Of a DNA stretch of 15,221 nucleotides, positions 3,796 to 15,221 are shown piece by piece. The first letter of the stretch is position 1; the number at the start of each line of letters is the position of its first letter. Made by a program: the position numbers and the translations under genes. A model generated the notes under the pieces. It was not told the origin of the DNA, ran no database searches, and was given only the letters and a program-made list of their open reading frames with translations. The DNA is from Candidatus Nanohaloarchaea archaeon (GTDB lineage: Archaea > Nanohalarchaeota > Nanosalinia > Nanosalinales > Nanosalinaceae). The DNA lies in assembly GCA_041640035.1 (NCBI GenBank), contig JBEQBC010000015.1, positions 1 to 15,221 of the forward strand. Reading direction: 5' to 3'.

Positions 3796-3837
3796 CGTAT
3801 TACCTCGTAATATGTTATGATGTATTACCTTGCCTGG

Positions 3838-3846
3838 TATTTAAAA
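3838..3846. promoter_or_regulatory. TATA element between the divergent HAD and membrane-protein genes
   Basis: TATTTAAAA on the plus strand, 25-33 nt before ATG 3871. It reads TTTTAAATA on the minus strand, about 43-51 nt before ATG 3795. Confidence 0.5.
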
Positions 3847-3870
3847 CCTGCCAGATGCAATCAAAATAAT

Positions 3871-4302
3871 ATGAACCAGAACTTCCTGAGAGAAGTACTT
3901 ACAGGAGAATCCAGAGCATACGGCTTCACAATCGCGTTCTGGGGCTCAGGACAGGCACTAGCATACCATACCACATCGATACTGCCAACAAATGTTTTCA
4001 TGTACGGAGTAGGCGCAGTAACCGGTTTCAGCATCATGGCCTACTTCGCTTTCCGTGAAGCTCTGAGACCTGCCAAATATGAGGAAGAGCCTGAGTACAT
4101 GGTTATGAGCATGATGCATTATCTAGCCGCTTTACTGCCGATATTACTAGCTTACATCTACGGAAGTTTCATAGAAGGAAATGCACTGTTCTTCGCTACA
4201 GGCGCATCTGTATCACTGGTATACAATATAGCGATGATCGCCGAAGAGCTTTTCTCAGAGGAAGCTCATTACCTTGAGACGAAGCTTATGGAAGGTTTAT
4301 GA
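3871..4302 (+). CDS. Small integral membrane protein of unknown function (about 4 TM)
   Basis: Four hydrophobic segments and an acidic C-terminus. Start moved to ATG 3871 (MNQNFLREV) on TATA spacing; the ORF-track extension from 3817 runs through the promoter. Confidence 0.7.
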   Translation: MNQNFLREVLTGESRAYGFTIAFWGSGQALAYHTTSILPTNVFMYGVGAVTGFSIMAYFAFREALRPAKYEEEPEYMVMSMMHYLAALLPILLAYIYGSFIEGNALFFATGASVSLVYNIAMIAEELFSEEAHYLETKLMEGL

Positions 4303-5046
4303 GATATCCTTCCACTTACCACCGTATACATATCCATTCATCCTGTTTTCTTTAGCCAGGTGGCGGAAGACTTCTTCTAGATCTTTTTCACCAGTTTCAT
4401 TTATCTTGGAGAATATCTCTGGTTCTAGTATGTATGTCCCTGCGTTGATGAGTCTTGTGTCCGGTTTGCTTGGTTTTTCCTCAAAACCGAGTACTTTTCT
4501 ACCTTTCAGAGTTACGACTCCGTAGTTTGATGCGTCCTGAACTGTTGTCAGTGCTACTGTTGCCGGTCCTTCCTCTTCTCTGTGTGTTTCCAGCATTTCT
4601 TTGAAGTCTACATCTGATATCACATGTCCGTTGAGGGCTACGAAGGTGTTTCCTATCTTCTCTTCTGCTTTGCTGAGTGCTGAAGCTGTTCCCTCCGGTG
4701 ATTTTTCTTCTATGTATTCGAGTGTGACGCCTTCGTGTTTGGAGCCGAAGTTCGGTTCTATCTCATCTCTGTTGTCCCCTACGAGAAGAATCGCTCTTTT
4801 GATCCCTTCCTGCGCCAGATGTTCGATTATATGGCTGAGCACAGGTTTTCCTTCGTGGAGAGTGAGGGTTTCGTTCTCCGAGTCTCCGCACAGTATTACT
4901 GCTGTATCCAGTCCTTTGGCCTGGAAGTAATCCCCTGTTATCTTCTCCATCATCTGGGACCGGTTGATATCGTAGTTGCTGGCCTCCTTATCTATCTTGT
5001 TTACAAGTTCCTGATCCAGTGTGAGAGATACCCTCTTCTTCGGCAT
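4297..5046 (-). CDS. RHH (CopG/MetJ-like) domain fused to a degenerate sugar-phosphate nucleotidyltransferase domain
   Basis: The N-terminal KKRVSLTLDQELVNKIDKEA....INRSQMMEKI fits the RHH strand-helix-helix pattern. The rest is NTP_transferase-like (AVILCG, GKPVL.HII, PEGTASAL, YGVV, FEEKP, INAGTYIL), but the GGxGTRL..PK loop is missing. Confidence 0.82.
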   Translation of the reverse strand: MPKKRVSLTLDQELVNKIDKEASNYDINRSQMMEKITGDYFQAKGLDTAVILCGDSENETLTLHEGKPVLSHIIEHLAQEGIKRAILLVGDNRDEIEPNFGSKHEGVTLEYIEEKSPEGTASALSKAEEKIGNTFVALNGHVISDVDFKEMLETHREEEGPATVALTTVQDASNYGVVTLKGRKVLGFEEKPSKPDTRLINAGTYILEPEIFSKINETGEKDLEEVFRHLAKENRMNGYVYGGKWKDIS

Positions 5047-5123: not shown

Positions 5124-6038
5124 TCACATGTAGCCGAGGCTTCTCAGCTTGTCCATGATCTCTTTGTCGTCTTTGTTCTGTGCTCTGCCTGCTCGTTCTT
5201 TGGTGTTCTCTACATCTTGTAGCCATGCTGGTTCTTCTGCTGACTTGTCTGTGGAGACTTCTGATCCAAGGGATCTGAATCCTGCCCAGTACTTTGGACT
5301 GATAGGTACATCGTCTTTGGTTAGTCCTTCTGGGAGGTCGTCAGGTGTTTCTGGGTATTCTTCGATTTCTACTCCTGTGATGTCTGGTACCATGTGGAAC
5401 CATGATACATCCCATACATCTCGTTCGTCTAGCTGCAGGATTGGGTGTACTCTGATGTGGTCTGGGTCTTCTCGTGGGCTGTAGAATTCTTCGTCGCCAC
5501 GGCTCTCGTGTTCGTCCCAGCGTACTCCGTTGATCACTGCTTCGATATTGTGGTTTTCCAGGAGTTCGTTCATCGGTACTGTCTTGAGTAGGTGGTTTCC
5601 TGCTTCTGTATCCATTAGCCATGGTACTTCTTCGTAGTCTCCTACTTCTTCGGCTGCTTTCTGGTTTCTGTCGTTGAGTTCTGCGACAGGTACTTTGTCG
5701 CCTGGCTGGTCGGCTTTCTCGATCAGGTCTTCGTTCTTGGCAGTCATTACTTCGAATCCCCAGTTGTCGGCTAGTCTTTCGACATAGTCTTCTAGTTCGT
5801 CGAAGTGCTGTCCGTGGTCTACGAACATGAACCGTGGTTTGTCGAATCCGTGTTCTTCACAGACTCTTTTGACGATCCATGCGGTCAGTGTGGAGTCTTT
5901 TCCTCCTGTGAATCCGATGACTACATTTTCTGAGTCGTGTTCTTCGAGTGCTCGTTTGACGACATCTTCTCCTGCTTTGATTTTGGCGTTGAGAGGTGCG
6001 TTTTCAATTTCGTCTCGTGTTACAGGTGCTTCTGGCAT
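5124..6038 (-). CDS. cysD: Sulfate adenylyltransferase subunit 2-like protein (PAPS-reductase/PP-loop family)
   Basis: PP-loop FTGGKDS, plus VDHGQHF, LKT, GVRWDEHESR, RVHPI and FRSLG. ERAGR resembles CysD ERQGR, and the terminal LGYM resembles CysD GYF. It lacks the ECGLH tail and Fe-S cysteines of APS/PAPS reductases. SD AGGTGA is present upstream. Confidence 0.72.
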   Translation of the reverse strand: MPEAPVTRDEIENAPLNAKIKAGEDVVKRALEEHDSENVVIGFTGGKDSTLTAWIVKRVCEEHGFDKPRFMFVDHGQHFDELEDYVERLADNWGFEVMTAKNEDLIEKADQPGDKVPVAELNDRNQKAAEEVGDYEEVPWLMDTEAGNHLLKTVPMNELLENHNIEAVINGVRWDEHESRGDEEFYSPREDPDHIRVHPILQLDERDVWDVSWFHMVPDITGVEIEEYPETPDDLPEGLTKDDVPISPKYWAGFRSLGSEVSTDKSAEEPAWLQDVENTKERAGRAQNKDDKEIMDKLRSLGYM

Positions 6039-6060
6039 TAGTTGGTTTGTTCACCTAGTA

Positions 6061-6843
6061 TTAGTTTTCCGGATAATCGTGTCCGTAATGGTTTAGGATA
6101 GCTTTTGCGACATCTCCAGGCTGATCTATCTCAAAATCAACATTATTCGTGATCAAAACCGCGTCCTCATGATGATCTCCCTCTAGTTTACCGTGAGGCG
6201 TTTCTTCTGGCAGCGTCTGGACTCTTCCTTCTCCGAACTCTGCGAAGCCGTGGTCCGAAAGCACGATCAAAGGTTCATCGCTGTCGAAATCATAATATTC
6301 GAGTAGTTCGCCAAGTACTTCATCCATCTTCTTGTACCAGTCCAGGATGAGGTCTTTGTCGTTCCAGTAGAAATGTGAGACGCGGTCGAGCTGCATGAAG
6401 ACAACTGCGAAGAACTCTGGATCATCCTCCAGGACTTCCTTGCTTTTTTCGATCAGTTTCTGTCGGTCTGCTTCCAGTTCGTCAAGGTCGCTGCTGACTC
6501 CGAAACCTTCAGGCTCGTAACTTGTTTTATAGTTTATCGGCGGAATCACGGCCGGTATCTGAAGAATCTTTGAGTCAACATCCGGCATCTTTTCCCAGAC
6601 GAACTCTCCGTCAATATCGCTCTGTTTCTGGAGTTCGTCTTCGACCACGAAGTCTTTATGACCGTGCTCATCCTGCCGCAGGCCTGTGAATATTGAGGTC
6701 CAGAGAGGCGCGGATTTAGGTGTTTCCTCGACCGTGACTGTTTTGTGGTTGCATTCTTTCATCAGTCGGTCGAAGTTCGGTAGTTCGTCTCTATGTGGTT
6801 TTATCATGTCCCATGTGGCCGCGTCTATTCCGATAACTTTCAT
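6061..6843 (-). CDS. Alkaline phosphatase superfamily protein (NPP/phosphodiesterase type), compact form
   Basis: Contains GIDAATW, PKSAPLWTSIFTG (Ser at the nucleophile position), LDRVSH, LSDHGF and GDHHEDA. SD GGAGG is 11 nt upstream. Confidence 0.85.
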   Translation of the reverse strand: MKVIGIDAATWDMIKPHRDELPNFDRLMKECNHKTVTVEETPKSAPLWTSIFTGLRQDEHGHKDFVVEDELQKQSDIDGEFVWEKMPDVDSKILQIPAVIPPINYKTSYEPEGFGVSSDLDELEADRQKLIEKSKEVLEDDPEFFAVVFMQLDRVSHFYWNDKDLILDWYKKMDEVLGELLEYYDFDSDEPLIVLSDHGFAEFGEGRVQTLPEETPHGKLEGDHHEDAVLITNNVDFEIDQPGDVAKAILNHYGHDYPEN

Positions 6844-6861
6844 TTTGGTTCTTGCCTCCGT

Positions 6862-7065
6862 TTATCTTTCCATGTATCCGAGTTTTTCGAGTTTCTTGCC
6901 GATCTCCTTGATCTCCTGCTCACTCATCTTTTCTCCTGATTCCATATCCTGTAGGACCAAGTGTTTGATGTATTCTTTCGGTGTTGAGAAGTTCTGGTCG
7001 TCGATATGTTCCTCTACATCGCCAAGAAATTCCTTTTTGAAGGAGATCGTGGTGTAGTCGGACAT
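6862..7065 (-). CDS. Small RHH/CopG-like protein with a C-terminal LxxLGY helix
   Basis: YTTISF strand followed by two helices (FSTPKEYIKHLV); ends IGKKLEKLGYMER. It has its own TATA box. Confidence 0.78.
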   Translation of the reverse strand: MSDYTTISFKKEFLGDVEEHIDDQNFSTPKEYIKHLVLQDMESGEKMSEQEIKEIGKKLEKLGYMER

Positions 7066-7089
7066 TAAGAAGAAAGTGTAGATAGGATG

Positions 7090-7098
7090 TTTATATAA
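7090..7098 (-). promoter_or_regulatory. TATA box for the RHH-AlkP-cysD operon (leaderless)
   Basis: TTATATAAA on the minus strand, 25-33 nt upstream of ATG 7065. Confidence 0.6.
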
Positions 7099-7113
7099 CC
7101 TAATTATATTTAA

Positions 7114-7338
7114 TTAGTCTAGGTATCCTAGTCCTTTCAGTCTCTCTTTGACTTTCTCTTCGTCTTCTTCACTGAATTCTTTGTCTTCTTCATCAGCCAT
7201 CTTCTTCTTTGCTTTCTCTGCTACCTGGTTGAGGACATAGTTAATGTACTCTTCCGTGGTATCGAATCCTTTGTCTTCTGCTCTTTTTGCTAGAAGGCCG
7301 TAGGTTTCTTCCGGTATCTCTACAGTGTTGTCAGTCAT
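7114..7338 (-). CDS. Small RHH/CopG-like protein with a C-terminal LxxLGY helix
   Basis: NTVEIP strand, helices including GFDTTEEYINYVL, an acidic linker, and the end EEKVKERLKGLGYLD. Confidence 0.8.
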   Translation of the reverse strand: MTDNTVEIPEETYGLLAKRAEDKGFDTTEEYINYVLNQVAEKAKKKMADEEDKEFSEEDEEKVKERLKGLGYLD

Positions 7339-7387
7339 CGAAGTATCACAGTAGATATTGGTGTGTTGGTTCTTTAAACCAGTTTTT

Positions 7388-8761
7388 TCATATATCTAGG
7401 TCTGCTACTTCTGAGGTCTGCAACGGTTCAAAGTCCTCTGAGAATATCTCTTGTATTATTTCTCCGTCACAGTCGATTTTTTGGCCTAGATAGTGTGCTA
7501 TTGTTGGTGCTACATCTGTTATGTGCTGTTTTCCAGGATTTTCTGTCTTGAAGCTAGGTCCTGTACCTGCTATGATCCCTGTTCTTCCGTGGATGAATGC
7601 CTGTGTGCGGAAATATTCTTTGCCTGCTGGCTGCATCCCTGAACCTGCGTCCTCTACGGTTTTTGCGACTAGATCGGGGAATCCTTCTTTCTTTTCGTAG
7701 AGCTCTTCTGTTTCTATGACTTCATCGATGATTTCTTCGTTCTCCAGTTTTCTCTTTATCTCTTGTTTCTTGGATTTATCGTTTAAGTTGACATCTGCAT
7801 AGGAGTTTGCGCTTCCTCTGTAACAGTAAGCATCCGAAGATTCAAAATCTATTTTATCCAGGCTTTTTGAGGTTGGTGAGAAGTCTTTACCAGTCTTTGA
7901 TGCAACTATATCGTTTATTGTCTTGAGGTAAGGCTTTAGTTTTGTGCCCGCCAGGTATGATTTTATTGAGAATATCAGACCTGATGAGGAGTTGTTTTCT
8001 TCTCCTTCCTCCATTTTTAGGTATCCTCTGTTCTTTAGCCATGTGTTGATGTAGAAGAAACGATCAACCTTTTTGAATCCGTGATCGGATACAACTAGTA
8101 CATCATCATATTCTTCCATCCTGTCGCCTAGTACTTTGTCTATCTTCCTGTATGATTCAAGCAGTTGATCAAGTGTCTGTGCTTTGTGTGAAGCCGTGTC
8201 CGTTATTTGGTATACCTCTATCCTTACATCGGGGTTTGAACCTATTTCTGAGAAAATTTCCTTCCTTTGATCAAAATTCTCATGGTAAAGATTGAATTTT
8301 TCTTTCGCTGTAGTTGCTTCCGCTTCTTCCCTGAAATCCAGTTCCTGAAGCTTTTCATCAACTTCTTCCGGGTATCCTGATGGATCGCTCACCATCGGGA
8401 AGCCTTCAACCATAACTCCGTTAATCGGCCAGATAGGAGAGTTCCCCGGAACATTAATCAAGTCATATTTTGCATCTGTCTTGTCCCATACCATCTCTCC
8501 CTTCCATTTGCTGGAGGAGGATGGTGAAAGTCCATCATCAGTATCTAGCTCGGTCATGTGATAGAATCCTAAGGTGCCGGGTTGCTGGCCTGAAAACATG
8601 GATACCCATGCTGGAAGAGTGGTAGGAGGTATAGTTGAATCCATATCGGCCAGAAAGCCTTCTGAAAGCAGTTTCTCCATGTTTGGCATCAAGCCTCTGT
8701 CGATCGCTTCGTTAATGTATTCTTTTGATGCACCATCCATGCCAAATATGAGTAAGCTCAC
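7388..8761 (-). CDS. Alkaline phosphatase superfamily protein (type I phosphodiesterase/NPP-like)
   Basis: Contains GMDGA, STIPPTTLPAWVSMFSG, TDTASH, VSDHGF, FIHGRTG and DVAPTI. GTG start with GGAGG 10 nt upstream; ends ADLDI. Confidence 0.88.
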   Translation of the reverse strand: MSLLIFGMDGASKEYINEAIDRGLMPNMEKLLSEGFLADMDSTIPPTTLPAWVSMFSGQQPGTLGFYHMTELDTDDGLSPSSSSKWKGEMVWDKTDAKYDLINVPGNSPIWPINGVMVEGFPMVSDPSGYPEEVDEKLQELDFREEAEATTAKEKFNLYHENFDQRKEIFSEIGSNPDVRIEVYQITDTASHKAQTLDQLLESYRKIDKVLGDRMEEYDDVLVVSDHGFKKVDRFFYINTWLKNRGYLKMEEGEENNSSSGLIFSIKSYLAGTKLKPYLKTINDIVASKTGKDFSPTSKSLDKIDFESSDAYCYRGSANSYADVNLNDKSKKQEIKRKLENEEIIDEVIETEELYEKKEGFPDLVAKTVEDAGSGMQPAGKEYFRTQAFIHGRTGIIAGTGPSFKTENPGKQHITDVAPTIAHYLGQKIDCDGEIIQEIFSEDFEPLQTSEVADLDI

Positions 8762-8824
8762 TATCTTTTTTCCTCCTGTAGAAAATTCATTCGATGTTAT
8801 GACTTAAATGAATATGAGTTATAT

Positions 8825-10234
8825 CTACAGATCAAGATCAGCGATATCTTCCCCTTCGCTATAGTTTGTTTCCTCAAGTATATCCTCTCTGACTTGGCCG
8901 CTGTTAGCCGATACCTGCCCATCGATAGCCTGAATAGTTGAGGCTACATCTAGAAGGTGAGCATCTTGCTGTTCATTACTGAATGCCGGTCCTTCACCCA
9001 TCCAGAGACCTTCCTTGTTGTGTACAACAGCTGAAGTGTTGTGGAACTTGTTTGTGTAAAGTTCTCCGCCTATTACAGTATTATCTTCAGCTTCTACAAT
9101 CAAATCAGGCATCTTATCAGTGAAACCGAGTTCATCAGCTTTATAGACTTCTTTAATGTACTCTTCTGTTTCGAGCTGCTGCTTGACTTCTTCTGCTTTC
9201 TCTGAACGGTTTTCGACTATGCCTTCAGGAAATCTTTCTTTATCGTGTATCCAGATGGCTCCGAAGTTTGAGACTGCGGACAGGTTGGAGAAGGCTTCGG
9301 TTTGAGAAAATTCTATACCGTCCATTATGCCGCTCTTGCCTGGCTGGAGATCTTTCCCAGTGTTTGACTCTATCAAGTTCTTGGTTTTTTTCATGAAAGG
9401 TTTAAGACCTAGTTTCAGGCCAATCTGTACAGCTCTATCCATCAAGGTTTTGGAAACTGCTTCCTCACTTTCTTTGTACTTTGTATATCCTTTTTCTCTC
9501 AGCCAGGCGTTCATGTAGAGCTTTCTACCGGTATTACCCGAGCCATGATCTGAAGTAACCATCAGGTTCCAGTTATTTTTGTTACAGAGTTCCCTGAATT
9601 TTCCAAGCGCTTCATCCGCTTTCAGGTATGCTTTTTTCATCTCTGACTCTTCATCGACATCGTGCATGTATGTGTCGATTATTCTGAATACTGAGAACGC
9701 TCTTTCGAACTCTCTGTTTTCCAGCAGCCATTTGAATATCTTCACATTCTGTTCAAAGTTGTAGCCGGCTACTTCCTGTTTACCGCCCTCATTGAGAGCT
9801 TTGAAATCGAAATCTAGTTCTTCTTTGATTTCCTGTTCGAGCTCCTCTGACTGGAACTCTATCTCCTCTGCTTTCATGAAGCCAGATATCATATCGCTGT
9901 TTATTTCATAGCCTGGCGTGGTCCCTGGAACTCTGAAGCTTATCGTTTTCTTATCGCTGTCGATTATTGATTTGCCTTTGAAGAAGCTTGAGTTAACTGG
10001 TGTGATTTCATAATTTTCGAAGTCTAGGTTACCGAAGTCCCATGCCTCGAACTCTCCTGGTTTCTTGCCTGACAGCATGCACATCCATGCCGGTACTGTG
10101 ATAGGTGGCTTGATACTTTCCAGTTCTCCATGGAAGCCGTTATCCATTATTGCCTGAAAGTTAGGGAGATCTTTCTTCCATTTTTCGACTAGTTCTGGGT
10201 CGGCTCCGTCTAGGCCTATCATTACTGTCGGCAT
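8825..10234 (-). CDS. Alkaline phosphatase superfamily protein (type I phosphodiesterase/NPP-like)
   Basis: Contains GLDGA, PPITVPAWMCMLSG, IDTYMH, TSDHG and VHNKEG; ends ADLDL. Start moved to ATG 10234 (MPTVMIGLDG) by alignment with the paralogs; the longer ORF overlaps the flippase. Confidence 0.88.
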   Translation of the reverse strand: MPTVMIGLDGADPELVEKWKKDLPNFQAIMDNGFHGELESIKPPITVPAWMCMLSGKKPGEFEAWDFGNLDFENYEITPVNSSFFKGKSIIDSDKKTISFRVPGTTPGYEINSDMISGFMKAEEIEFQSEELEQEIKEELDFDFKALNEGGKQEVAGYNFEQNVKIFKWLLENREFERAFSVFRIIDTYMHDVDEESEMKKAYLKADEALGKFRELCNKNNWNLMVTSDHGSGNTGRKLYMNAWLREKGYTKYKESEEAVSKTLMDRAVQIGLKLGLKPFMKKTKNLIESNTGKDLQPGKSGIMDGIEFSQTEAFSNLSAVSNFGAIWIHDKERFPEGIVENRSEKAEEVKQQLETEEYIKEVYKADELGFTDKMPDLIVEAEDNTVIGGELYTNKFHNTSAVVHNKEGLWMGEGPAFSNEQQDAHLLDVASTIQAIDGQVSANSGQVREDILEETNYSEGEDIADLDL

Positions 10235-10257
10235 ATGAGAGGAAGGTGTTTTAATCG

Positions 10258-10266
10258 CTTTTATAC
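10258..10266. promoter_or_regulatory. Bidirectional TATA element between the AlkP and flippase genes
   Basis: CTTTTATAC is centred at 10262, exactly midway between the divergent ATGs at 10234 and 10290 (24-31 nt from each). Confidence 0.6.
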
Positions 10267-10289
10267 CTTCGATTAACTGAAATGGATAT

Positions 10290-11852
10290 ATGGCCTCGGA
10301 AGAAAAGGAAAACGCCATAAAGTCGATCTTCAAGGGCGGCACCATTGTTTTCCTTGGAGTGATAGCCTCGAAGTTCATGGGTCTGGGCTACCGCGTACTT
10401 GTAGGTAGATACCTTGGTCCCGCGGATTACGGAGTGATATCTGTCATGATGGCTGTTTTCTCGGTTTCGACTACTTTGGTGTACATCGGGCTTCCTAACG
10501 GCATACAGAGGTATATATCGTACTATCTGGAACAAGATGATAGGGAGTCTGCGCGAGGAACTGTTAGAACCGGTTTCAAGCTTTTGACAGCTACTTCAGT
10601 TATTGGCGGCATAATATTATTTGCTATAGCTCCATGGCTTTCTAACACGGTTTTTAATGAGCCTAAGGCGATTTGGCCGATCCGTATGATGGCGGTTATT
10701 CTTCCTTTCCGTGCTTACACGCTGATATTCACCCGTATAACGAATGCTTTTGAGAAGATGCAGTATCAGGTTATTACGGGCCGTATTTATGCGAATTTTT
10801 CCAAGATGCTGGTTGCAGCGATACTCGTAGGTCTTGGAACCGGTTATATGGGTGCGGCAGCAGGTTACGCGTTTGGATTTGGTTCAGCTGCTTTTGTAGG
10901 AGGTTACTTTGCATACAAGGTCTTTCCAGATGCATTTTCGCTTTCAAAGCCGGTAACACATAATTATAGCGAGCTTTTCCATCATTCTTTTCCTCTTATG
11001 GCGGCCGGGCTTTTCGGAATAATAACAGGTCACATCGATACCTTCATGCTTCAGATTTTCCGTGACTCTACTCAGGTCGGGATCTATCAGGCAGCCTATC
11101 CTTTCGCCATGTTGATGACTACTGGTCTTTCTATGTTTAGCAGCATATTTCTCTCTAATGCCTCTAAATTAGCATCTCAAGGTAACGAAGGTGATCTTGT
11201 TTCCACATACAGAACCGTTATCAAATGGGTGTCGATCGTTACTGTACCGGTCTTCCTGATTATATTTGCCTTCCCTAAAACAGCGCTTATAGTGTATGGA
11301 GCAGAATACTACAGCGCTACAAATGTATTGAGAGTTCTATTAGTCGGATTTATGTTAAGTGCGTTGATAGGTCCTGCCAGCAATATCTATCAGGCCTATG
11401 ATCGGACAAAACTTAATCTTGTAGCCTCCATAATAATTGCTACGGTTAATGCTGGCATAAACTATGTTTTAATACCTCAGAACACCTGGTACGGTGGTCC
11501 TATGGGTGCTGCTATCGCGTCAACTATCGCTTTTGCGGCAGTATTCATTTTCCATTTCGGAACTCTTTACCGAATTCTTGGCGGACAGCCTTTCCGTTTC
11601 TCGCTTTTGAAGATCTGGGTTTCAGGATTGGTAAGTATAGGGGTAGTTTACGGCATTTCCAACCTTCTGTTCAATATTACTCCTGTATGGTTCTTCGCAG
11701 TGAATCTAGGCATATTTGGTGCAATCTATGGAGTGCTTTTACTTGTAAGCAGAACTATAGAGGAGGAAGACTTAGTGGTGCTGCGTGCATTGAGAGATAA
11801 AACAGGTCTGGAACTTGGATTTGTTGAGAAAATCGTGAGAAAGTTCAGTTAG
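10290..11852 (+). CDS. Oligosaccharide flippase (MOP superfamily, Wzx/AglR-like)
   Basis: About 14 TM helices, with RYLGPADYG, GLPNGIQRYIS, ELFHHSFPL, IDTFML....STQVGIYQAA and NYVLIP...GPMGAAIAS. Confidence 0.9.
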   Translation: MASEEKENAIKSIFKGGTIVFLGVIASKFMGLGYRVLVGRYLGPADYGVISVMMAVFSVSTTLVYIGLPNGIQRYISYYLEQDDRESARGTVRTGFKLLTATSVIGGIILFAIAPWLSNTVFNEPKAIWPIRMMAVILPFRAYTLIFTRITNAFEKMQYQVITGRIYANFSKMLVAAILVGLGTGYMGAAAGYAFGFGSAAFVGGYFAYKVFPDAFSLSKPVTHNYSELFHHSFPLMAAGLFGIITGHIDTFMLQIFRDSTQVGIYQAAYPFAMLMTTGLSMFSSIFLSNASKLASQGNEGDLVSTYRTVIKWVSIVTVPVFLIIFAFPKTALIVYGAEYYSATNVLRVLLVGFMLSALIGPASNIYQAYDRTKLNLVASIIIATVNAGINYVLIPQNTWYGGPMGAAIASTIAFAAVFIFHFGTLYRILGGQPFRFSLLKIWVSGLVSIGVVYGISNLLFNITPVWFFAVNLGIFGAIYGVLLLVSRTIEEEDLVVLRALRDKTGLELGFVEKIVRKFS

Positions 11853-12439
11853 TCTTTTTCCTTTTCTATCACTATGAACTTGGTCATAGGAAGTATTTTC
11901 GGAAAGTTGGCTGTATCCAGGACATTATACTGTTGGAAGTGGCTTATATCTACGATATTGAGGTGCAGATTCTCTTTCTTCAGTTCTTTCTGACGCCATC
12001 TAAGTAGAATGGACATAACGCCCTGTGGTTTCACATCAAATATGATTCTGCCACCTGGTTTACACACTCTGTGCATCTCTTCTACTGCTTTTTCCCAGTT
12101 ATCGATGTGCATGAGTAGCCGGGTTGAGATCACATTGTCGAAGGAGTTGTCTTCGAAAGGTAGTTCTTTGGCATCGCCTTGAATGTACTCGTTGTCGGGA
12201 TGTTTTTCTCTTGCTTTTTCCAGCATTGGTTCTGAGAAATCTATACCGGTGTAGTTCTGTATGAAGCCGAATCGTGATGTTCCGCATCCTACATCGAGTA
12301 CTGAGCCTGGCCGGATCCATCTGGTGACGCATCCTCTTTCGAATATATCGAAGTATTTTTTCCGCCAGTTGCTGTCTTGGAACCTGTTTTCATCGTATTC
12401 TTCTGCTATTTCTTCTTTCTGATAATGTTCAGGATCCAT
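11849..12439 (-). CDS. Class I SAM-dependent methyltransferase
   Basis: Contains VLDVGCGT, GIDFSEPML, GDAKELPFEDNSFD and EMHRVCKPGG. Confidence 0.92.
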   Translation of the reverse strand: MDPEHYQKEEIAEEYDENRFQDSNWRKKYFDIFERGCVTRWIRPGSVLDVGCGTSRFGFIQNYTGIDFSEPMLEKAREKHPDNEYIQGDAKELPFEDNSFDNVISTRLLMHIDNWEKAVEEMHRVCKPGGRIIFDVKPQGVMSILLRWRQKELKKENLHLNIVDISHFQQYNVLDTANFPKILPMTKFIVIEKEKD

Positions 12440-13496
12440 CGATAACTCCTCTGTATTCTTCTATGTATTTTTCTGTTATATAATCCCAGCTGTAGTTTGA
12501 TTCTATTGTCTCTCTTGCCTTTTCAGACATCGTGTCAAACTCTTGCTGTTCAAGTTGGCAGATTCTTTCAGCGAGTTCTTTCTCTTCTCCGTACCTGAAA
12601 AGCAAGCCATTTTTCCCATCTTCAATCAGTTCGCGAAAGTCAGGTATCTCTGTGCAGCAGACTATTCTTCCGCAGGACATCGCTTCGAGCGTTATGATCG
12701 GAGGAGAAGTGACTCCTGAACTATCTTTGATCGGGTTTAAGAGGATATCTGCACTGTTGTAGAACTCCGGCAGGTCTTCTATAAACCCTCTTACCTCTGT
12801 TATATCTTCCAAACCTTCTTCCATTATCTTTTCACGGGCTCTCTCCTTTTGATTATTTCTCTCGCGGACAGCTACTAATAAATTGACAGGTTTTTTCTCT
12901 CTAAGATTTTTCACAGTTTTAATCGCTGATAGGAATCCTCTTTTTTCATTTGGAGCTCCCATGTACAGCACATCCAAATCTTCATTCTTTCCTGGTTTTT
13001 CTCTTATATTGTAGTTTTCTGTGTCTATGCCGTACGGTATTACATCTTCCGCCGGAGATCTTTCTCTTATTTCATTGGAGGTGGCTACCACTTTCTGTCT
13101 AGATAACAGACGCCACAGTTTTTCTTCCTTACTTGAAGATCTGTATGCCGGAATAGTCCATAGAGAGTTAGAGGTTAGTTTAGATGCGTAAAGCGCCATC
13201 TTTGCTGACGAAGTATGGACATGTACCAGATCGACACCCTCTTCACGCATCAATTGACGGTTCTGGAAAAAGTTAGTCGCCTTGATCGGCCTCCTTACAA
13301 TCCGGACACCTTCGTAGATTTCCTCGCGCGGTAGATTATCCTCCTTGCTATTACTATCTCTTGTAAAGACAAATGCCTCATCCAACTTTTCATCGAGCTT
13401 CTTGGCGAGATTAACCGCTGATTTACCTGTGCCTTCATCAAGAGGTGTTCTCAGCTCTCCAACCAGAACCGCCACCTTCAAATCTTCTGCATTCAT
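12429..13496 (-). CDS. Glycosyltransferase family 4 (GT-B)
   Basis: Contains DLVHVH, IPYGID, YMG....KRG, FYNSADI, LEAMSCG, ELIEDGKNGLLF and NYSWD. Confidence 0.92.
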   Translation of the reverse strand: MNAEDLKVAVLVGELRTPLDEGTGKSAVNLAKKLDEKLDEAFVFTRDSNSKEDNLPREEIYEGVRIVRRPIKATNFFQNRQLMREEGVDLVHVHTSSAKMALYASKLTSNSLWTIPAYRSSSKEEKLWRLLSRQKVVATSNEIRERSPAEDVIPYGIDTENYNIREKPGKNEDLDVLYMGAPNEKRGFLSAIKTVKNLREKKPVNLLVAVRERNNQKERAREKIMEEGLEDITEVRGFIEDLPEFYNSADILLNPIKDSSGVTSPPIITLEAMSCGRIVCCTEIPDFRELIEDGKNGLLFRYGEEKELAERICQLEQQEFDTMSEKARETIESNYSWDYITEKYIEEYRGVIDGS

Positions 13497-13508
13497 TTTT
13501 AATCCCTC

Positions 13509-14957
13509 CTATACATCTAGATCTCCTGTAAAATCGTAGGAAACCTCTTTTTCATTTCTCTGAATTCCGTTCAATACCTCGCCTTCCATATAATCAGGGA
13601 TATCTATACCCATCAAGTGAAGAAGAGTAGGGGCTATATCGATAATTTCAGCATCTACACGCTCACCTTCAACTATACCATCGCCTATAGCACCGAAAAT
13701 ACCGGTGTAGCTATGATAGGCATTGTCAGGTTCGTCAAAGTAACCCTCATCGACTTCTCCCAGTATAAACTCTTTATTCAGTTTGCCTGTCAATTTTGGA
13801 CCTCTTCCTCTGTAATCATCTTCATCTTTGAACTCAAAGCTGTCAAAAACCTTTTCTCCATCAGGGCCAGAAAGTTGCTCGAGCTCTTCCTTCAGCTCAT
13901 GAAGTTTTTCCTCGTCATCAGTGTAGTCAAAGATTAAAGCTGCGCCCATACCTGTGGAGAGGAATTCTGTTTTCGCCAGGTCGATTTTACCATCTTTAAT
14001 TTGATGCGCCATGCCGCTTCTTCCATCAGGCACTGCTTCCTGAACATTTTCCGGCACGAAACGCTTTACAACATCTCTAAGACCTAGTTTATTTACTAAA
14101 TCAGACATATTACTCTTTGTGAAACCCAGATTTTCGAGAAAACTTCTATTATCATTTGTGCTCTGATATCCGTTATCTCTTAGCCATTTATTGATATCAA
14201 ATGTGTATTCGGACATCACCATCCCGTGATCTGACATCAGTAATACCTGATAGCCTTCATCGGTTAGTTCTCCGACTAAATGGCTTAGATAAGAGTCTAC
14301 ATCCTTGAATAAATCCTCTACCTCTTGCTGCTGTGGATCCCAGTAGAAGTGAGTCAGTATATCAGTTATCCTTAGTACTGAAACGAAGAGATCCCAGTCC
14401 TCTCTATTTTTGAGATCTTTTAGAGCTTTTTTTCTTTTATCGTAGACCCTGTATATCTCATCGAGAAAATCCTCATCTTTAAGCGAGTATAATCCTTGAG
14501 CCTCTATTTCGTAGTCATGTTCCTCAAGTAACTCTTCCTTCAGATCTTCAGGATATGTGAAATCGCTATTCTCTGAGGGTGTTGTCATTCCTGAAACCAT
14601 AACCCCGTTCACTTCGTGCGGAGGATATGTGACAGGCACATTAGCCACGCATGTACTCTTCCCGTTCTTTGATGCGACTTCCCAGAAACGCTCATCTTTG
14701 ATATAGCTTCCATTAATGTAATGTACCGAATTATCATCGATAAGTTCAAAACCATAGATACCATGGCTCTCCGGCTTCTTACCTGTCATGAACGACGGCC
14801 ATGCAGAAGCAGTCACCGGCGGAGTAGTCGTCTCAAGCTCTCCCCAGACGCCTTCTTCCTTCAGTTTCTGGAAGAACGGCAGCTTTCCTTCCGCTATCAA
14901 TGGATCAAGTATCCTCCAGGTTGCTCCATCCAGACCGATTACTGCGACCTTGCTCAT
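13509..14957 (-). CDS. Alkaline phosphatase superfamily protein (type I phosphodiesterase/NPP-like)
   Basis: Contains GLDGATW, TTPPVTASAWPSFMTG, TDILTH, MSDHG, AYHSYTG and DIAPTLL; ends GDLDV. Confidence 0.9.
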   Translation of the reverse strand: MSKVAVIGLDGATWRILDPLIAEGKLPFFQKLKEEGVWGELETTTPPVTASAWPSFMTGKKPESHGIYGFELIDDNSVHYINGSYIKDERFWEVASKNGKSTCVANVPVTYPPHEVNGVMVSGMTTPSENSDFTYPEDLKEELLEEHDYEIEAQGLYSLKDEDFLDEIYRVYDKRKKALKDLKNREDWDLFVSVLRITDILTHFYWDPQQQEVEDLFKDVDSYLSHLVGELTDEGYQVLLMSDHGMVMSEYTFDINKWLRDNGYQSTNDNRSFLENLGFTKSNMSDLVNKLGLRDVVKRFVPENVQEAVPDGRSGMAHQIKDGKIDLAKTEFLSTGMGAALIFDYTDDEEKLHELKEELEQLSGPDGEKVFDSFEFKDEDDYRGRGPKLTGKLNKEFILGEVDEGYFDEPDNAYHSYTGIFGAIGDGIVEGERVDAEIIDIAPTLLHLMGIDIPDYMEGEVLNGIQRNEKEVSYDFTGDLDV

Positions 14958-14966
14958 CTAGTACAC

Positions 14967-15221
14967 CTATATATCAAGGTCGTCTACAGCTTTATCCATT
15001 TTGGCTTCAGAACCGTCAGCGAAAATCTCATTTCTTACCTGTCCATCTACATCTGATGGAATCTGAACATCGTAATAGTTGAGAATTGTCGGCATAAGAT
15101 CGTAGATGCTGATGTCCTTCTCGCCTTCAGTAAATTCAGGTCCGTATGCAGCATAGATCCCTTCCTGTCGATGATTGGCTATCCAAGAACTTGCACCGCA
15201 CTCTTCGTCGATTACTTTATC
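14967..15221 (-). CDS. C-terminal part of a fifth alkaline phosphatase superfamily protein (5' partial, absent from the ORF track)
   Basis: Manual translation gives DKVIDEECGASSWIANHRQEGIYAAYGPEFTEGEKDISIYDLMPTILNYYDVQIPSDVDGQVRNEIFADGSEAKMDKAVDDLDI*. This aligns with the paralog C-termini (H...G....GP, D..PT.L, DG.V). Confidence 0.85.
   Translation of the reverse strand, partial: DKVIDEECGASSWIANHRQEGIYAAYGPEFTEGEKDISIYDLMPTILNYYDVQIPSDVDGQVRNEIFADGSEAKMDKAVDDLDI

Follow-up and report, generated by a model that had tools for sequence, protein, structure and literature searches.

Haloarchaeal envelopes are characterized by sulfated glycans and glycolipids. In Haloferax volcanii, sulfation of a dolichol phosphate-linked hexose needs Agl7 (HVO_2046), a cytosolic or membrane-associated protein annotated as N-acetylgalactosamine-4-sulfatase (PMC3892788, in excerpts). 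In Halobacterium salinarum, Agl30 (VNG1056C) and Agl31 (VNG1057C), two sulfatase-like proteins of the alkaline phosphatase (AlkP) superfamily, sulfate the N-glycan and, after transfer, also a Haloferax glycan (PMC11980604, in excerpts). This report describes a nanohaloarchaeal locus in which a CysD-like gene is accompanied by four complete PF01663 genes of the AlkP superfamily (AlkP1 to AlkP4) and one contig-end-cut PF01663 paralog (AlkP5), interspersed with genes for a Wzx flippase, a family 4 glycosyltransferase (GT4) and a methyltransferase. The locus (positions 5124–15221) lies on contig C15 of a 0.98-Mb genome that is 89% complete; this entire 15,221-bp contig was analyzed and is called the window below. 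In the excerpted text of the two Agl accounts neither a sulfate donor nor an activating enzyme is named (PMC3892788, PMC11980604), and the word PAPS (3′-phosphoadenosine-5′-phosphosulfate) does not occur in the text of the Agl30/31 paper (PMC11980604). The excerpts of a 2024 review of polysaccharide sulfotransferases contain no mention of AlkP-type enzymes (PMC11625862). Our literature search found no paper on a coupling of CysD-like and AlkP proteins, and nothing on sulfated-glycolipid sulfotransferases or on HVO_1078/HVO_1079, the likely names of the two tandem CysD-like genes beside dph6 (HVO_1077) in Haloferax volcanii.

The window proteins have the AlkP-superfamily fold and the location in a glycosylation cluster in common with Agl30, Agl31 and Agl7. 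They are soluble and encoded together with Wzx, GT4, an AglH-like transferase (PF00953) and nucleotide-sugar enzymes. Agl31 and Agl7 are cytosolic, and the Agl proteins act on dolichol phosphate-linked glycans before flipping and without a classical sulfotransferase (excerpts of PMC11980604 and PMC3892788). The precedent for an AlkP fold in haloarchaeal glycan sulfation is stronger than a preliminary description of this DNA had claimed, as Agl7 and Agl30/31 are needed for N-glycan sulfation according to the same excerpts (PMC3892788, PMC11980604). There are two differences. The Agl proteins are sulfatase-like (PF00884-type, with sulfatases as best structural matches), whereas those of the window belong to PF01663 and to the nucleotide pyrophosphatase/phosphodiesterase (NPP) type, with a Thr or Ser nucleophile. 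Furthermore, a CysD-like activator is linked to the window enzymes and, in relatives, joined to them in a single protein.

The region is probably a glycan sulfation system based on adenosine-5′-phosphosulfate (APS), its catalysis being deduced from gene-level facts. A link of the AlkP paralogs to activated sulfate is strongly supported, because the operon is conserved, AlkP::CysD-like fusions exist and Sat-CysC replaces the CysD-like gene in sister genomes. The preliminary description had proposed transfer of either sulfate or a phospho-substituent; these three lines of evidence uphold the sulfate link and weaken the phospho alternative. With slightly better than even confidence we propose that a stand-alone CysD-like ATP sulfurylase, a coupled Ser-type AlkP protein and Thr-type AlkP sulfotransferases would use APS to sulfate glycans before flipping. 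As part of the same explanation, and with the balance only just on its side, the region would be the tailoring half of a surface-glycan cluster (probably for a lipid-linked oligosaccharide) with its own sulfation machinery.

The strongest argument comes from sister genomes. Two unrelated sulfate-activating enzymes occupy the same slot beside the same AlkP families, which argues that the CysD-like protein activates sulfate and that the AlkP proteins use the product. Among 70 genomes of the phylum, Sat is encoded in eight, and APS kinase (CysC, E≤1e-20) is found in exactly the same eight. A first search for APS kinase gave P-loop-only matches of ~24 bits and was repeated at this threshold, at which the Haloferax volcanii control no longer matches. 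Seven loci from six of the Sat genomes were scanned (90 open reading frames, ORFs). In all six genomes Sat-CysC adjoins PF01663 genes or CysD-like remnants. It is accompanied by a PHP-domain gene in G007, G036, G038 and G054 and stands alone in G004, while G003 has CysC and the PHP gene, with Sat at a contig end. In G038, which has the 260-residue AlkP (AlkP1 of the window) and no CysD-like gene, Sat-CysC-PHP lies ~1.5 kb from the 260-residue AlkP. In G054 it lies beside a degraded CysD-like gene only, and there is no PF01663 ORF on the 5-kb contig. The contigs of G003, G004, G007 and G038 also carry a context of Wzx, glycosyltransferase, epimerase and nucleotidyltransferase genes, the last with a ribbon-helix-helix (RHH) domain. 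In family f4 the CysD-like gene is absent from all ten genomes, and AlkP-Sat-CysC is present in two of these (G004 and G007). No match to a sulfotransferase family was found among the 90 ORFs. Compared with Sat-CysC acting with P-loop sulfotransferases, the predicted end result (sulfate esters on glycans) is the same, and so is the cluster slot in sister nanohaloarchaea, but the activating enzyme of the window is non-homologous and neither APS kinase nor Sulfotransfer_1/2/3 is present here.

Two further genes were observed at these loci. Five of the six genomes encode a phosphatase-like PHP-domain protein next to Sat-CysC or CysC (e.g. L090:3133-3978; not seen in G004). It may be the 3′-phosphoadenosine-5′-phosphate (PAP) phosphatase of the Sat-CysC pathway; such a role is known for PHP-family enzymes. 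A membrane protein of the MgtC/DUF4010 type is encoded beside Sat-CysC or CysC in G003, G004 and G007 (e.g. L090:1881-3119; loci L088-L094).

For the analysis of gene linkage, 80 loci (23 nanohaloarchaeal and 57 from Halobacteria) were compared over up to 10 kb on each side. The unit of small ORF, 260-residue AlkP and CysD-like gene is conserved among the nanohaloarchaeal loci. In 18 of the 23 nanohaloarchaeal loci the CysD-like gene has a PF01663 gene at a distance of at most 1 kb, and in one more at a distance of at most 10 kb; of the four loci without a neighboring PF01663 gene, three extend less than 750 bp upstream. For Halobacteria, the number with a PF01663 gene within 1 kb is 21 of 57, mostly Halorubrum and its kin, so that these cases are not independent. 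The AlkP-cysD linkage on which the preliminary description was built is thus conserved in other genomes.

The CysD-like gene and the 260-residue AlkP are found together in 29 of the 70 genomes of the phylum; 11 have the CysD-like gene only, two the AlkP only and 28 neither. Within the phylum the CysD-like gene is an accessory one: it occurs in 40 of 70 genomes (18 of the 28 of high quality) and in neither of the two others of the same genus. Of the 31 genomes with the 260-residue AlkP, 30 also have a CysD-like gene or Sat, and this AlkP looks like an obligate partner of the CysD-like enzyme in this gene-content comparison. One or the other activation gene is likewise present in 26 of the 30 genomes that have at least five PF01663 matches, versus 8 of the 24 that have two or fewer. 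In the genome studied here at least four of the five PF01663 matches, among the matches listed, are on contig C15. PF01663 is massively expanded in several nanohaloarchaea with genomes of 1 Mb, such as G048 (21 matches, the maximum), G035 (16) and G039 (15), and takes up a large share of such small genomes.

In the sampled Halobacteria, the CysD-like gene occurs in 199 of 201 genomes, Sat in four and APS kinase in eight. The CysD-like protein is the only candidate ATP sulfurylase found in ~98% of them, and no PAPS route is evident in these genomes. These counts make it the obvious candidate for the missing sulfate-activation step of Halobacteria. A tandem second CysD-like paralog (43–46% identity, all motifs kept) was seen in Haloferax and some other Halobacteria (L038, L050, L052, L063, L074; e.g. 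L052:10903-11958); in L052 it is followed by Dph6-like and NTP_transferase genes according to Pfam. A DUF7110 gene precedes the CysD-like gene in three loci (L052, L059 and L069).

Natural fusions connect the two protein families directly. In Ca. Nanohalalkaliarchaeum (L024), AlkP1 and the CysD-like protein form a single chain of 570 residues, and a small LGY-tailed ORF lies ahead of it. A profile search of 1.84 billion representatives gave 102 clusters at E≤1e-30. Domains were scanned in 31 of the 150 listed relatives, chosen for length plus top matches; in 19 of these 31 the chain starts with an AlkP-superfamily domain (PF01663 or PF00884) and ends with a CysD-like one. In P0242 an EF-Tu-type G domain is inserted between PF01663 and the CysD-like domain, and in P0228 an EF-Tu/CysN-type G domain precedes the CysD-like domain. 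In P0181, another AlkP::CysD-like fusion, the AlkP part has 30% identity to AlkP4 of the window over 512 residues. An ESM Atlas look-up of the fusion P0175 returned sulfatase clusters only (score 0.80). Judged from the natural fusions, the CysD-like protein and the 260-residue AlkP are probably coupled physically.

The PP-loop of the CysD-like protein (T44-G-G-K-D-S49) is invariant across the family alignment (A1). The best NCBIfam match is CysD (PRK05253) with 73.1 bits at a cut-off of 195; therefore "CysD-like" is correct and "CysD" is not. TIGR02039 scores 45.3 (cut-off 396.6) and CysH 47.9 (cut-off 154). The best structure match of the family profile is CysD (1zun_A, E 5.2e-14). Positions 151–306 align to residues 130–324 of 1zun_A, and the alignment spans the C-terminal motifs RSLG and ER.GR...LGY. 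The window protein ends in ..LRSLGYM, and the tail ER.GR..KE..M..LR..GY[MFW] is present in 26 of the 28 relatives that were examined. A grouping with FAD (flavin adenine dinucleotide) synthetases or reductases, which the preliminary description had named as damaging to its proposal, is not observed; by profile the protein groups with CysD, including the C-terminal motif. The AlphaFold2 (AF2) model has a PAPS-reductase-like fold (predicted local distance difference test, pLDDT, 84.7), and Foldseek matches it to 4bwv, 8ron and 1zun at E ~1e-8. The nearest named relative, from Ca. Nanohalobium constans, is 93% identical, and identities to most nanohaloarchaeal matches are 70–94%.

Two other identities were considered. 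The protein has a single Cys (C60) and none in the C-terminal 240 residues, which excludes a CysH-type reductase or Fe-S enzyme; the catalytic C-terminal Cys motif of CysH is of the ECGLH type. PAPS/APS reductase was thus rejected for the missing catalytic or Fe-S cysteine and the CysH score below cut-off. Compared with flavin mononucleotide (FMN) adenylyltransferase (FMNAT), only the N-terminal PP-loop region aligns well to human FAD synthase (8rom, E 1e-9), with a best stretch of 15–103 and a weak second one of 168–224 (i-E 0.64). The genome encodes riboflavin kinase and a RibL-like protein of the cytidylyltransferase family (129 residues). Haloferax has RibL (HVO_1015; excerpts of PMC8305020), and the CysD-like gene is likewise encoded in the Haloferax genomes that were searched. 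A role in FMN adenylylation therefore does not seem to be needed, and the FAD synthetase identity was set aside on these grounds and for the sulfate-type gene context.

The window protein resembles CysD-CysN (E. coli cysDN; Pseudomonas syringae, 1ZUN) in three respects: a TGGKDS PP-loop, a fold like that of PAPS reductase, and RSLG and ER.GR...GY motifs near the C-terminus. In contrast to CysD, the window protein is devoid of an insertion of ~40 residues and scores below the family cut-off; neither CysN nor CysC is encoded, and its partner is an AlkP-fold protein. NodP-NodQ, a paralogue of CysDN, is an example of sulfate activation dedicated to glycan decoration.

The window AlkP genes match PF01663 with 86.7 to 142.2 bits (cut-off 23). 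In a test for sulfatase-type sequence (PF00884), the only matches were a sub-threshold one to SGSH_C on AlkP4 (E 7e-4) and a weak arylsulfatase one, with PF01663 as the assigned family. The 84-residue ORF at the contig end (14967-15221, minus strand) has no Pfam match; its alignment with the C-terminal ends of 13 AlkP ORFs from related loci (E 1.4e-10 to 2.5e-4) shows that the fifth, cut paralog is real. D10, T49, D199, H203, D243, H244 and H415 are kept in the three long paralogs (alignment A3, AlkP4 numbering), as are D7, S44, D153, H157, D197, H198 and H224 in AlkP1. The alignment thus agrees with the preliminary description, according to which all four complete proteins retain the metal ligands and a Thr/Ser nucleophile. 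Hydrophobicity was scanned with a 19-residue Kyte-Doolittle window (KD19) at a threshold of 1.6. No window above 1.6 was found in the AlkP proteins and the CysD-like protein (maximum 1.22, compared with 2.37 for Wzx), and the AlkP proteins start straight at the first β-strand. Therefore, they have neither a signal peptide nor a membrane segment, and the absence of a signal peptide, assumed before, is borne out. The longest ORF of AlkP3 (8825-10378) overlaps the start of Wzx by 89 bp, and homologues align only from M48. The true start is probably M48 (coordinate 10237), by which the overlap disappears and a divergent promoter region of 52 bp is left.

AlkP1 is encoded directly upstream of the CysD-like gene. 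It is 68–90% identical across 12 nanohaloarchaeal orthologues and 42% identical to the more distant L026, with invariant metal ligands and S44. In both phyla the nucleophile of the AlkP partner adjoining the CysD-like gene is Ser (S44 of the 260-residue protein, Ser in the Halobacteria form of 446–476 residues), and the other AlkP paralogs have Thr. In Halorubrum, the adjacent Ser-type AlkP has 448 residues. The AF2 model of AlkP4 (pLDDT 84.2) has ENPP1/3/5/6, the Xanthomonas (Xac) NPP and PhnA as nearest solved folds. These enzymes and the window proteins have PF01663, the two-metal ligands and the Thr/Ser nucleophile in common. Unlike NPPs and PhnA, however, the window proteins are cytoplasmic and not secreted, end in an additional domain with an acidic-hydrophobic tail and form large paralog families in glycan clusters. 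The nucleophile motif of the window-type proteins is T-x-P/S-A-W with an invariant Trp. The NPP motif is T-F-P-N-H, and thus the Asn that holds the phosphoryl oxygen is missing. The divergent motif may reflect a different electrophile.

Recurrent chain ends were observed in both families and in the small ORFs upstream of AlkP1. A tail of the form D-[LIV]-[DES]-[IVFL] (e.g. DLDI, GIDF, DISV) is present on nearly all nanohaloarchaeal AlkP paralogs, short and long, in a survey of AlkP2 to AlkP5 and the paralogs in L005-L023 and L088-L094; the two paralogs directly beside Sat are devoid of it. This tail may be a docking signal. The ends of the two small ORFs (..KLGYMER and ..GLGYLD) resemble the CysD-like C-terminus, with LGY one to three residues from the C-terminal end. 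Two long AlkP proteins of Halobacteria (L027:17495-19042 and L053:18246-19760) end in ..RLxxLGY[MI], the same motif as in CysD-like proteins. Its recurrence suggests a portable C-terminal docking helix.

The 89%-complete genome encodes no Sat, APS kinase, Sulfotransfer_1/_2/_3 or sulfite reductase; for Sulfotransfer_2 the controls are silent too, so that this negative carries little weight. For CysN the only match is aEF-1α (270 bits, cut-off 336). The CysD-like gene is the single PAPS_reduct gene, and a normal inorganic pyrophosphatase is also encoded. With no sulfite reductase, second PAPS_reduct gene or APS kinase, APS would have neither an assimilatory outlet nor a kinase. The absence of cysN, cysC, sulfotransferase and sulfite reductase genes, described before for the window, thus extends to the whole genome. 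The PAPS-independent route put forward with it is supported by the occurrence of APS kinase in just the eight Sat genomes of the phylum and in 8 of the 201 Halobacteria.

In the proposed mechanism, the CysD-like protein would form APS from ATP and the abundant sulfate of the brine without a need for CysN. The formation of APS is unfavorable, which gives plausible grounds for tight coupling or fusion to a consumer and for use in sulfate-rich brines. The 260-residue Ser-type AlkP, tightly and probably physically coupled, would capture the unstable product or pass on its sulfuryl group. The long Thr-type paralogs would be cytoplasmic sulfotransferases for different acceptor positions on a lipid-linked glycan, with the acceptor held by the extra C-terminal domain. 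The sulfuryl donor would be APS, or PAPS in lineages with Sat-CysC, and transfer would probably proceed via a covalent sulfo-Thr/Ser intermediate at the two-metal site. Sulfate would be placed on glycan intermediates at the cytoplasmic face, which Wzx then flips. Gene content, linkage, fusions, replacement by Sat-CysC and the missing APS kinase are observations; the production of APS, the transfer of the sulfuryl group, a covalent intermediate and the nature of the acceptor are inferred.

Several points weigh against this proposal. The main doubt is a chemical one. To our knowledge, Thr-nucleophile enzymes of the AlkP superfamily transfer phosphoryl and not sulfuryl groups, and an NPP-type attack on the phosphorus of APS would result in mere hydrolysis. 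No enzymology exists for any member of the CysD-like or window-type AlkP families. The CysD-like protein is far below the cut-off of the CysD family (73 vs 195 bits), and a fold search with its model places APS reductase, FAD synthase and CysD at about the same distance and does not separate CysD, CysH and FMNAT. Within the phylum, 11 of the 40 genomes with a CysD-like gene have no 260-residue AlkP, four of them being closed; the pair is therefore not obligatory. Four genomes with 5 to 14 PF01663 matches (G037, G014, G008 and G067; 69–92% complete) show no activation gene. As genomes of one phylum are kin, the tallies overstate independence. In 35 of the 57 Halobacteria loci there is no AlkP gene within 10 kb and the CysD-like gene lies among housekeeping genes, so its main role there may be sulfate assimilation. 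Furthermore, several family-less ORFs in the Sat-type loci could be unrecognized sulfotransferases.

The last point also fits an explanation that we regard as unlikely, though it deserves attention: the CysD-like protein activates sulfate, the AlkP/NPP proteins are mere helpers (removal of pyrophosphate, clearing of AMP, APS or PAP, or proof-reading) and the true sulfotransferase is an unrecognized protein encoded elsewhere. Eukaryotes are known to have fusions of ATP sulfurylase with a pyrophosphatase, nucleotide pyrophosphatases are the closest solved folds, the hydrolase metal ligands and nucleophile are intact in the window proteins, and family-less ORFs are present in the Sat-type loci. 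However, a normal inorganic pyrophosphatase is already present, few ORFs of the window are without a family (two small ones and a membrane-like one of 161 residues) and no known sulfotransferase family was found in the genome. A helper role also leaves 5 to 21 diverged paralogs per 1-Mb genome among glycosyltransferase and flippase genes unexplained, and Agl30/31 show that AlkP-superfamily proteins can be sulfotransferases (PMC11980604, in excerpts). The AlkP paralogs might instead add phospho-substituents in the manner of LtaS, EptA and PIG-N-type enzymes, with the CysD-like protein adenylylating a substrate other than sulfate (FMN, a sugar phosphate or another oxyanion). This is rather improbable. 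The CysD-like score below the CysD cut-off, the match of the PP-loop region to human FAD synthase (E 1e-9) and the riboflavin kinase of the organism are compatible with it, and the Thr-type transferases of the superfamily that have been characterized all move phospho-groups as far as we know. Yet Sat-CysC takes the place of the CysD-like gene in the same context of sister genomes, the protein has the C-terminal motif specific to CysD, and in relatives a CysN-type G domain is part of the chain. A RibL-like protein is encoded here, and Haloferax has RibL despite its CysD-like gene (HVO_1015; excerpts of PMC8305020). No cytidylyltransferase for glycerol phosphate, choline or ethanolamine is encoded in the window.

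That the CysD-like gene is a plain assimilatory ATP sulfurylase of halophilic archaea, and its proximity to AlkP genes meaningless, would suit its presence in 199 of the 201 sampled Halobacteria (Sat in four), often among housekeeping genes. We consider this very improbable for the present locus, as the genome has no sulfite reductase or other PAPS_reduct-family gene, the gene, accessory with 40 of 70 genomes of the phylum, is located inside glycan clusters, and AlkP-domain fusions are not explained by chance adjacency. Sulfur scavenging or assimilation was rejected for this organism on the first of these grounds. An anti-phage or DNA-modification system of the BREX/Dnd/Ssp type would likewise combine a PglZ-like AlkP protein with a PAPS-reductase-like ATPase; PglZ has the AlkP fold, and DndC, SspD and BrxP are PAPS-reductase-like. 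AlkP4 has a weak Pfam match to PglZ (E 0.008), but PADLOC, run on seven proteins, returned nothing for the AlkP proteins and only SspD with 19.5 bits for the PP-loop protein. Defense was rejected on this result. The reading is hardly credible in view of the near-universal CysD-like gene of Halobacteria and a context of flippase, glycosyltransferases and nucleotide-sugar genes in place of a methyltransferase/ATPase/helicase set.

The APS-based sulfation proposed here would be a form of the known glycan sulfation by the AlkP superfamily, in this case of the NPP type, coupled to a GTPase-less CysD-like activator and with no PAPS route. If the NPP-fold paralogs were APS-using sulfotransferases, they would represent a second widespread biological sulfation chemistry beside the PAPS/P-loop enzymes. 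Glycan-cluster genes of the "alkaline phosphatase family", a very numerous group, would have a function, and the retention of up to 21 such genes in 1-Mb symbiont genomes would be explained. A wider generalization is possible, although we put it somewhat short of even: NPP-fold enzymes would be a large unrecognized class of PAPS-independent glycan sulfotransferases that use APS directly, via a covalent sulfo-Thr/Ser intermediate, and are physically coupled, or in many organisms fused, to a GTPase-less CysD-like sulfurylase. The latter would also be the near-universal sulfate activator of Halobacteria for their sulfated N-glycans and glycolipids, and the LGY proteins and the acidic-hydrophobic tails would act as docking elements in the assembly of the machinery.

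The genes of the region are listed in the table below.

Table. Positions, strands and supporting matches of the genes in the region and of the adjoining nucleotidyltransferase gene
Feature	Position	Strand	Evidence
Sugar-1-phosphate nucleotidyltransferase with N-terminal RHH domain; next downstream, same strand	4297..5046	-	PF00483 E 1e-29, weak RHH_1
CysD-like PP-loop ATP pyrophosphatase, 304 residues; proposed GTPase-independent ATP sulfurylase	5124..6038	-	PF01507 PAPS_reduct E 2.6e-21
AlkP1, minimal 260-residue AlkP/NPP-fold enzyme, Ser nucleophile	6061..6843	-	PF01663 E 2.9e-24
Small acidic ORF, 67 residues, weakly RHH-like, CysD-type tail ..KLGYMER	6862..7065	-	Homologues in related loci
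Second small acidic ORF, 74 residues, tail ..GLGYLD	7114..7338	-	51-89% identity to ORFs of six related loci
AlkP2, long AlkP/NPP-fold paralog, 457 residues, Thr nucleophile, tail ..ADLDI	7388..8761	-	PF01663 E 9.2e-33
AlkP3, long AlkP/NPP-fold paralog, 470 residues from M48, tail ..ADLDL	8825..10237 (ORF to 10378)	-	PF01663 E 1.2e-29
Wzx-type polysaccharide flippase	10290..11852	+	PF01943 E 7e-30, PF13440; KD19 2.37
S-adenosylmethionine-dependent methyltransferase	11849..12439	-	PF08241 E 4.6e-26
GT4-family glycosyltransferase	12429..13496	-	PF13692 E 1.7e-22, PF00534
AlkP4, long AlkP/NPP-fold paralog, 482 residues, Thr nucleophile, tail ..GDLDV	13509..14957	-	PF01663 E 3.9e-41
AlkP5, C-terminal 84 residues of fifth paralog, contig-end cut, tail ..DDLDI	14967..15221	-	Alignment to AlkP C-termini

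On the minus strand from 10237 to 4297 the order is AlkP3, AlkP2, the two small ORFs, AlkP1, the CysD-like gene and the RHH-fused nucleotidyltransferase, with intergenic gaps of 18 to 77 bp. Wzx is divergent from AlkP3 and is followed by the methyltransferase, GT4, AlkP4 and the cut AlkP5. The set of a CysD-like gene and five AlkP/NPP-fold genes with flippase, GT4 and methyltransferase given in the preliminary description is confirmed by Pfam and by the alignment of the cut fifth paralog. Its placement of the CysD-like gene amid the AlkP genes is correct for the co-location only; the gene is located at one end of the array. In addition, a supposed gap of 544 bp (6844-7387) in that inventory contains the two conserved small ORFs, which had been missed. 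Each extra ORF of at least 80 residues in the region 5124-15221 sits inside or overlaps a named gene. The best NCBIfam matches of GT4 are all far below cut-off (TIGR04063 stp3, 67 bits with a cut-off of 442; Agl16, 61 bits with a cut-off of 575).

Pfam searches with the small ORFs 6862-7065 and 7114-7338 gave no significant match. Homologues of the former are located just upstream of the 260-residue AlkP in related loci, and two orthologues have marginal RHH_1 or CcdA matches (E ~1e-3), on which the term "RHH-like" is based. These two are the only ORFs without an assigned family in the region 5124-15221. The remainder of the window has one such ORF (3817-4302, 161 residues, no Pfam/NCBIfam family), which contains a hydrophobic segment (KD19 1.85) and is found in the same position in 15 related loci with 39–48% identity.

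Upstream in coordinate order, an AglH/MraY-like initiating transferase (PF00953) is encoded at 3-722 and adjoins nucleotide-sugar genes. The segment 702-5046 comprises a cupin (702-1181), an HldD-like epimerase (TIGR02197, 183 bits, below cut-off), a PfkB kinase, a HAD phosphatase and the RHH-fused NTP_transferase (73 bits to the HddC model). Judged by these matches, the genes together look like a complete nucleotide-sugar pathway of the nucleoside diphosphate-heptose type. The nucleotidyltransferase 4297-5046 is an enzyme fused to a domain of DNA-binding type. This RHH part is kept in 17 related loci and reaches E 2.5e-8 for RHH_1 in the orthologue L091:4310-5059.

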